From NCBI GenBank assembly GCA_031701365.1, contig GCA_031701365.1_4118.1: DNA of 64,000 bases. One strand, written 5' to 3'. How positions within the stretch are numbered: position 1 is the stretch's first letter; each line of letters opens with the position of its first letter. Both the position numbers and the translations under genes were made by a program. The notes under the pieces were generated by a model that worked only from the letters and a program-made list of their open reading frames with translations, was not told where the DNA came from and did not search any database. The DNA comes from Escherichia coli (GTDB taxonomy: Bacteria; Pseudomonadota; Gammaproteobacteria; Enterobacterales; Enterobacteriaceae). Shown one piece after another: positions 19,611-19,689 of the stretch.

Positions 19611-19689
19611 AGGACGGGGAACGAAATAAGTAACTTCCCGTTAAGTAGCCCAGGAGTAAGGCAAACGAAAAACTCCCCTGATAAAATAG
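19611..19689 (+). ncRNA. repeated structured leader / candidate small RNA (R1 element, copy a)
   Basis: ~80 nt with no ORF, directly after promoter; hairpin ACGGGGAAC...CTTCCCGT; near-identical copy at 30266-30344, diverged copy at 22563-22628. Confidence 0.3.

Follow-up and report, generated by a model that had tools for sequence, protein, structure and literature searches.

A conserved structured RNA motif at the start of jumbo-phage early transcripts, very probably shared with the T7 A1 leader

Structured RNAs near early promoters

The putL and putR sites of phage HK022 are promoter-proximal, two-hairpin RNAs at the start of the early operons, and they need no phage protein. Hairpins at the 5' end of bacterial and phage mRNAs, for example that of ompA, serve as stabilisers. 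Here we describe R1, a short element that stands directly behind early promoters in a 64-kb stretch of phage DNA, referred to below as the window. R1 is the jumbo-phage form of a widespread motif that has no name in the searchable literature and that also lies just downstream of the A1 promoter of T7-like phages.

Like put, R1 is phage-encoded and promoter-proximal, has two hairpins and stands at the start of an early operon. The two differ, however, in that they match neither in sequence nor in structure, that the invariant parts of R1 are single-stranded loops, and that no terminator clearly needing suppression lies downstream in the R1 units. A covariance model (CM) of R1 reached at best 8.5 bits (E=1.8) on the whole HK022 genome, and a search of the HK022 genome and the E. 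coli rrnB leader and operon returned nothing (best 8.7 bits). With lambda nut sites and rrn leaders the motif shares a hairpin whose loop is rich in A (GAAAAA) and which belongs to an early or leader transcript, and one T7-like variant stands near a boxA. In contrast to these sites, the R1 loop is 16-17 nt long and not a pentaloop, the CM misses the rrnB leader, and boxA is not above chance in the window: sequences within 2 mismatches of CGCUCUUUAACAA-like boxA number 8 against 7.6 expected, and none is near R1. A boxB-type hairpin was rejected on the loop length and on the missing CM match in the rrnB leader.

Stabilisers of the ompA type have base-pairing at or near the transcript 5' end, as R1 does. 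They need no conserved loop sequence, unlike R1, and about two dozen promoters neighbouring R1 have a simple hairpin only. In the PeSL cassettes of T4-type phages, a stem-loop that works as a terminator is paired with an early promoter (PMC2839356). These cassettes, too, are common to different phages; the hairpins of the R1 array, by contrast, stand just after +1, lack U-tracts and are not terminators, and R1 bears an extra conserved module.

The segment between promoters A1 and A2 of T7 (NC_001604, nt ~536-590) contains, as does R1, a UAAGUAG linker and a hairpin with loop (A)UAAGUCnnACGAAAAA; it also has, as do R1 copies 1 and 2 but not copy 3, a further hairpin adjoining the linker on its 5' side. 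Equivalents are present in T3, phiA1122, 13a, Kayfunavirus and Klebsiella T7-like phages. Like R1, the segment lies just past the first early promoter used by the host polymerase, usually with a second promoter next, and T7-like and R1 leaders have in common an initial transcribed sequence of the AUCGAG/AUCAGG type. Unlike in R1, the T7-like 5' end closes a separate first hairpin instead of the whole junction, and hairpin 2 adjoins the -35 of A2. The module is carried by only one promoter per T7-like genome, versus three per terminal repeat in the window phage. We found no published function for the A1-A2 segment in the searchable literature, where searches with motif strings returned the T7 sequence only in construct or template listings. 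Likewise, the searchable literature on T7 early leaders, Rak2-like promoters and PeSLs, a scope to which the older papers on the T7 left end do not belong, held no description of the motif.

Three copies in the early promoter array of a jumbo phage

The region that surrounds R1 shows 96-99% identity to Asteriusvirus jumbo coliphages, PBECO4, 121Q, G17 and vB_Ec-M-J among them. The equivalent of copy 1 in vB_Ec-M-J is at 3725-3812, within the annotated direct terminal repeat (DTR) at 1-21525, and all R1 copies map within this 21.5-kb DTR, 3.7-14.4 kb from the left end. Judging by the alignment to vB_Ec-M-J, the left genome end would map to about 15.9 kb of the window, and the promoter array at 16-36 kb would represent the terminal repeat. 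A tandem array of about 20 eight-base units (AAACGGCT, GGATGGCT, AGACGGCT) occupies 16650-16809, just inside this putative end and just upstream of most early promoters.

Some 25 near-identical sigma-70-type early promoter cassettes are spread over 16200-35300 on the + strand. Their layout is AAAAAGTAC-TTGCAA/TTGACA-16-TATAAT, followed in most cassettes by an ACATC start, a GGGGAA..TTCCCC hairpin, a Shine-Dalgarno sequence and a small ORF; an AGTACT palindrome recurs in them, at about -40 and in the spacer. The initial transcribed sequence of the array, AUCGAGAGGG, is identical to that of T7 promoter A1, and the early cassettes and A1 have the initial transcribed sequence ATCGAGAGGG in common. 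The same cassettes, together with some of the small genes, are also carried by rV5-like and Justusliebigvirus phages.

The CM finds R1 three times in the 64-kb window and no more, on the + strand at 19608-19682 (copy 1), 30263-30337 (copy 2) and 22560-22621 (copy 3), in each case beginning at the predicted +1 of a sigma-70-type early promoter. Scores for the three copies range from 50.6 to 55.1 bits, versus 8.7 bits for the next best match in the 64 kb. The pattern TAAGTAG-N(4-14)-TAAGnCnnACGAAA has exactly three matches in the window, all of them R1 copies, where shuffles lead us to expect 0.00. A reading made earlier from the letters alone (the sequence-only reading) had placed near-identical elements at 19611-19689 and 30266-30344 and a diverged copy at 22563-22628. 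This placement is confirmed: the first two differ at about 6 of 79 positions, as counted on the alignment, and the third is related but shorter, without the 3' arm of the first hairpin. Copies 1 and 2 lie inside a direct repeat of 186 nt (19537-19722 and 30192-30377, 87% identical) that covers the upstream promoter P1, the element and the following promoter P2.

The same reading had noted promoters directly upstream of all three copies and a second complete promoter in two cases, and both observations hold. P1 of copy 1 is a sigma-70-type early promoter, TTGCAA-16-TATAAT, at 19573-19600 (+), with a predicted +1 at A19608. Its P2, at 19691-19718 (+), has the full consensus TTGACA-16-TATAAT (12/12 matches), feeds the ORF at 19751-20362 and has no 5' hairpin. 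Likewise, copy 2 follows a TTGCAA-16-TATAAT promoter at 30228-30255 (+; predicted +1 at 30263) and precedes another TTGACA-16-TATAAT with 12/12 matches at 30346-30373 (+), which feeds a 44-aa ORF at 30404-30538. P1 of copy 3 reads TTGACA-16-TAGAAT, at 22525-22552 (+), with a predicted +1 at 22560. All these +1 sites are putative and were placed from the T7 A1 start at 498, an A in the same ATCGAG context.

Because no convincing second promoter follows, R1 in copy 3, and likewise in EJP2, is the 5' UTR of an mRNA. The gene downstream of copy 3 is ORF 22676-23158, a single-gene unit ending at a terminator at 23180; identical terminators (AGCCCACCTTAAACAGTGGGCTTTTTT) at 22445 and 23180 flank this unit. 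Copies 2 and 3 are each the first element after a terminator-like site, and copy 1 comes after a long gene-free stretch.

Several other features of the region were observed. Promoters on the minus strand are found at 30200-30173, 19526-19498, 17276-17249, 21698-21670 and 16936-16908, each with an ACAUC-type start and then a conserved CCCACCGGGUGCA motif, and their transcripts are candidate small or antisense RNAs. Two of these promoters are divergent and lie just upstream of R1 copies 1 and 2. Transcription from the one at 30173 would run for about 75 nt into a hairpin at 30092-30119, potentially a bidirectional terminator. This hairpin belongs to a repeated terminator-like family (AAAGGGATTGACTCCGGTCAGTCCCTTT; 30092-30119, 32685-32712 and 26049-26076) that itself contains a TTGACT..TATTAT promoter-like site. 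Outside the early region, a separate repeat, the hairpin AGCCAGUA..CUGGCAUU, is present in four copies on the + strand (4361-4390, 6878-6907, 8098-8127 and 9308-9337), all weak CM matches with identical model scores.

The sequence-only reading had called the element ORF-less. This is true in so far as no frame is conserved; it is inexact in that a 31-aa ORF does cross copies 1 and 2 (19599-19694 and 30254-30349). We rejected a coding element, since this ORF, the only one present, has its ATG within the -10 hexamer, ahead of the predicted start. Moreover, of 13 distinct homologous copies, 9 keep the frame open for only 10-26 codons, and by our own count copies 1 and 2 differ in it by 5 non-synonymous and 2 synonymous changes.

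Fold, covariation and relatives in other phages

The transcript of copy 1 (19608-19682) can, in predicted minimum-free-energy (MFE) folds, form a junction in which its AUCAGG 5' end (19608-19613) pairs with CCUGAU (19677-19682) directly 3' of hairpin 2, enclosing an optional hairpin 1 and a universal hairpin 2. Hairpin 1 pairs 19614-19620 with 19635-19641; the linker UAAGUAG follows at 19642-19648; and hairpin 2 consists of GGAG (19653-19656), a 16-nt loop (19657-19672) and CUCC (19673-19676). The CM match covers 19641-19680. Copy 2 has the same architecture in its MFE fold, with the core at 30296-30335. Copy 3 is a form without hairpin 1: in its folds, AUC (22560-22562) and GACG (22565-22568) pair with CGUC (22615-22618) and GAU (22619-22621), the linker UAAGUAG is at 22577-22583, and hairpin 2 is made of CCAG (22588-22591), a loop at 22592-22607 and CUGG (22608-22611). 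The CM scores are 50.6, 50.9 and 55.1 bits for copies 1, 2 and 3.

Only about 40 nt are common to all forms: the UAAGUAG linker, 3-4 nt, and a hairpin of 4-6 bp with a 16-17-nt loop UAAGnCnnACGAAA(AA). The linker and the loop of hairpin 2, UAAGnCnnACGAAA, hardly vary, even between very different phages. In T7, positions 551-590 read UAAGUAG-ACA-GCCUG-AUAAGUCGCACGAAAAA-CAGGU, between the annotated A1 start (498) and the A2 -35. A CM built solely from 14 T7-like sequences retrieved the R1 copies as its top three matches in the window, with 37 bits for copy 3, 23.9 for copy 2 and 23.8 for copy 1; E-values ran from 4e-8 (copy 3) to 2e-4, and the next match reached 10.9 bits. R1 and the T7 A1-leader segment are therefore one motif, and that R1 is a conserved structured RNA motif shared with T7 is, in our judgement, very probable. 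Likewise, copy 3 and Yersinia phage phiA1122 are 91.4% identical over 35 nt.

Searches of other phage genomes, which the sequence-only reading had proposed, returned relatives in at least four groups: T7-like phages, Vequintavirinae (rV5-like), Justusliebigvirus, and Rak2-like jumbo phages including Asteriusvirus. BLAST with the T7 segment had matches in 491 T7-like records, at a single place in each, a figure that stands for BLAST similarity, the motif itself having been checked in about 30 fetched contigs. The hosts of these records are Escherichia, Klebsiella, Salmonella, Yersinia, Enterobacter, Citrobacter, Serratia and Aeromonas, and a pattern scan of IMG/VR added about 30 T7-like contigs. 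BLAST with the 88-nt element retrieved Asteriusvirus and, at ~90% identity, Vequintavirinae (A73, W70, A7_1, A5-4) and Justusliebigvirus (muut, outra, EmilieFrey); in all three the order is promoter, element, second promoter, gene. Copy 3 as query led to T7-like podophages, including phiA1122 and 13a (91% identity over 35 nt), and to the jumbo phages Munch, 7t3, fENko-Kae01, PHA46 and Erwinia phage Hallingskeid. A metagenome scan for other non-T7 lineages gave only more copies of the Asteriusvirus type and of the type of contig L039. The motif sits about 20-60 nt past the start of a host sigma-70 early promoter in the window copies, and from 551 in T7, where A1 starts at 498. The distance from the core to the next -35 varies among copies from 2 to ~45 nt, and some copies have no following promoter.

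Compensatory base changes between copies, which had been set beforehand as the test of the proposed structure, are present in both stems. Among 25 distinct sequences, the hairpin 2 stems are GCCUG with CAGGC or CAGGU, ACCUG/CAGGU, UCCUG/CAGGA, GCUUG/CAAGC, ACUUG/CAAGU, GCCAG/CUGGU, CCAG/CUGG and GGAG/CUCC. Paired cells make up 93.6% of the hairpin 2 alignment, versus 72.7% in shuffles and 21-45% in slid controls; both sides change in 4 of the 5 pairs, and the covariation score of 0.569, versus 0.184, was reached by none of 500 shuffles. In the non-T7 forms, the 5' nucleotides of the transcript are complementary to the segment directly 3' of hairpin 2. The pairings differ by lineage (AUCAGG/CCUGAU, AUC..GACG/CGUC..GAU, AUCAA/UUGAU, GACGG/CCGUC, CGGC/GCCG, GCGGC/GUCGC), and complementarity was found in all 8 variants tested, p being 0.000-0.019 for each versus shuffled controls. 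The closing stem appears in the MFE fold of 12 of 13 variants, and in the thirteenth, window copy 3, it appears once the sequence is trimmed to the element; Munch has it as well. T7-like phages have no closing stem around the whole junction; their 5' end forms the base of a first hairpin of its own.

Directly 5' of UAAGUAG, copies 1 and 2, T7-like phages and Munch-type phages have a hairpin, of quite different sequence from lineage to lineage, that shows modest covariation among the T7-like phages; window copy 3, EJP2, LTH01 and Hallingskeid lack it. The hairpin ACGGGGA...UCCCCGU of the sequence-only reading is present in the predicted MFE fold. Its distal GGGGA/TCCCC pairing fared less well: it exists as an alternative helix, and the sequence is better read as GGAG/CUCC of hairpin 2 plus the AUCAGG/CCUGAU closing stem. 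The long GGGGA/UCCCC helix and the junction fold are mutually exclusive, and covariation favours the latter. Compared with shuffles, folding is better for the T7 and Munch leaders (z -3.4 and -4.0), only modestly better for copies 1 and 2 (z -1.9 and -2.2), and no better for copy 3 (z -0.4 to -0.6). Hairpin 2 alone, with 4-6 bp and a 16-17-nt loop, is marginally stable. The sequence-only reading is borne out in so far as it saw a conserved, non-coding, structured element that begins at the predicted +1 of early promoters.

Two further T7 features were looked at. A second hairpin, GGUC-UAACGAAACCU-GACC, lies at ~784-812 of T7 (L006), downstream of A3 and just upstream of an rrn-type boxA (CGCUCUUUAACAA); its loop has ACGAAA in common with hairpin 2, and the CM gives it no score. 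A hammerhead-like reading of CUGAUAAG...CGAAA in T7 was rejected by eye, as CUGA is absent from R1 and Rfam gave no match.

Possible roles of R1 at the onset of infection

The sequence-only reading had left a choice between a stand-alone small RNA and a structured leader, attenuator or riboswitch-like, that feeds the downstream gene. An attenuator is contradicted by the lack of any intrinsic terminator or U-tract between the element and the downstream gene. A riboswitch-like leader does not fit either: the proteins encoded downstream of R1 across copies and phages fall into five unrelated PHROG families (phrog_5162, 27871, 13850, 14947 and 871), and the Rfam comparison that had been proposed matched no family to R1. 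With Rfam 15, the whole window gave no match at the gathering threshold, T7 nt 1-1500 none at E<=5, and R1 at permissive E-values only two chance-level matches. A scan of the window for tRNA and tmRNA found none. A fixed ligand-pocket architecture is also lacking, since one lineage does without hairpin 1 and T7-like phages have no closing stem. We thus rejected a riboswitch or attenuator expression platform, as no terminator-like site precedes the gene and a promoter intervenes in copies 1 and 2, and also a gene-specific leader, as the genes downstream of R1 are unrelated.

The gene that follows the form without hairpin 1 is found at 22676-23158 in the window and, in contigs L008, L068 and L066, at 3158-3745, 2050-2646 and 10168-10794. 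Its product in Asteriusvirus, Munch-type and Hallingskeid phages is a coiled-coil protein whose C-terminus bears a weak, non-significant likeness to the DNA-binding domain of H-NS (E = 0.1-0.2 in a profile comparison with PDB 2l93/1hnr). The protein of gene 22676-23158 may be a phage H-NS-like protein.

A host origin of the motif, or mimicry of a host sequence, was rejected, since searches of bacterial genomes and plasmids stayed at chance level: a pattern scan of 185,579 species genomes gave chance matches only, plus one T7-like contaminant contig, and BLAST with the core gave no match in 5,426 E. coli genomes and one chance match in 72,556 plasmids. No search yielded a candidate host factor.

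The near-invariant single-stranded blocks stay constant while the stems drift, in phages that otherwise share almost nothing, a pattern suggestive of a site where some macromolecule present in all the hosts binds. We tentatively propose that the paired 5' end would protect the transcript from 5'-end-dependent decay, as we assume the simple GGGGAA..UUCCCC hairpins of the neighbouring early promoters do, that the invariant single-stranded blocks may form a docking site for a factor conserved in enterobacterial hosts, and that R1 RNA might thereby recruit or titrate this factor in the first moments of infection. Over control of the downstream ORF we favour such a role of the RNA itself at the onset of infection, on three grounds taken together: the module is carried by one promoter only per T7-like genome and by three per terminal repeat here; the next promoter (P2, or A2 and A3 in T7), which lacks the element, as a rule drives the same genes; and the module lies near the genome end. 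The left end of T7 enters the cell first, and we assume that the R1-bearing end of the window phage does so too. That R1 is this motif and, at once, a leader RNA shielding its 5' end and displaying loops to a host factor is a statement on which we stand evenly divided; the mechanism by itself we rate as less likely than not. A bolder version, a 'first-strike' RNA that T7-like podophages, rV5-like and Justusliebigvirus myophages and Rak2-like jumbo phages would all use, we consider unlikely: here an aptamer-like module in the first RNA transcribed from the entering genome end would bind one conserved host protein, and neutralise or hijack it before any phage protein exists. The target might be RNA polymerase, a nuclease, a component of the degradosome or a sensor of a defence system.

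The main rival, in our view doubtful, is put-like action on RNA polymerase. R1 would be a cis-acting modifier of the host enzyme, like HK022 put RNA or a nut or rrn antitermination site, with nascent hairpins that bind RNA polymerase or a Nus-type factor, so that polymerases from P1 or A1 would resist pausing, Rho and terminators. The location just past early promoters and the two-hairpin layout do resemble put, and in the T7-like contig L028 hairpin 2 stands ~22 nt upstream of an rrn-type boxA, CGCTCTTTAACAA, with the same boxA further down the T7 leader. The start of copies 2 and 3 behind terminator-like sites, and of copy 1 behind a long gene-free stretch, also agrees with this reading. It is weakened, however, by the failure of the CM to match the HK022 genome or the rrnB leader, by chance-level boxA in the window and by the single-gene unit behind copy 3 (22676-23158, terminator 23180), where a need for read-through is not obvious; moreover, P2, A2 and A3 transcripts cover the same genes without the element. 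A stand-alone small RNA, released by processing and acting in trans by base-pairing with host or phage RNAs, appears decidedly unlikely. R1 has a strong promoter of its own, a second promoter serves the gene, the loop is strongly conserved, and RNase E might cut the AU-rich single-stranded stretch 3' of the element. Yet we found no Rho-independent terminator at the R1 3' end, so a discrete RNA species would need processing, and in copy 3 and EJP2 R1 is simply a 5' UTR. For the conserved loops, complementarity to E. coli 16S, 23S and 5S rRNA, tRNA-Glu and the rrn leader did not exceed that of shuffled queries, and the same was true of R1 and any site in the window.

A function in DNA, be it as an UP element or operator of the downstream promoter or as a PeSL-like recombination cassette that shuffles early genes, is quite improbable. 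The element does sit between interchangeable promoter cassettes and before different genes in different phages, and in T7-like phages the loop AAAAA falls at -46 to -42 of promoter A2, a position that recalls the UP consensus. Against this, compensatory stem changes and pairing with the exact 5' end are expected for an RNA and not for the binding site of a fixed protein. Part of the conservation in T7-like phages could act on DNA, the A-run of the loop doubling as an A2 UP element, but such a partial role cannot explain the non-T7 lineages, because there the promoter distance varies (2 to ~45 nt) or the promoter is absent. Very improbable indeed is that R1 is a decayed promoter or 5'-UTR cassette with no function, or a small-protein gene. 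Hairpin 1 does resemble an expanded form of the standard 5'-UTR hairpin of neighbouring promoters, and the 31-aa ORF spans copies 1 and 2, but the core is kept across unrelated phage families with covarying stems, and the frame of that ORF begins before +1 and is cut short in 9 of 13 copies.

T7 ranks with the most thoroughly studied phages, and its first transcript carries a structured motif of ~40 nt to which the searchable literature assigns no role. At least four groups of virulent enterobacterial phages, unrelated to one another, carry the motif with covarying stems, and it was not found in bacterial genomes, plasmids or Rfam. This broad conservation, together with the absence from hosts, points to selection on an interaction with a host component at the earliest stage of infection. 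As the motif is present in T7, the question is amenable to a direct test with existing genetics. Should R1 prove to recruit or titrate a host factor, early host takeover would gain an RNA-based layer; should it prove to act on RNA polymerase, a new protein-independent elongation signal would have been found.
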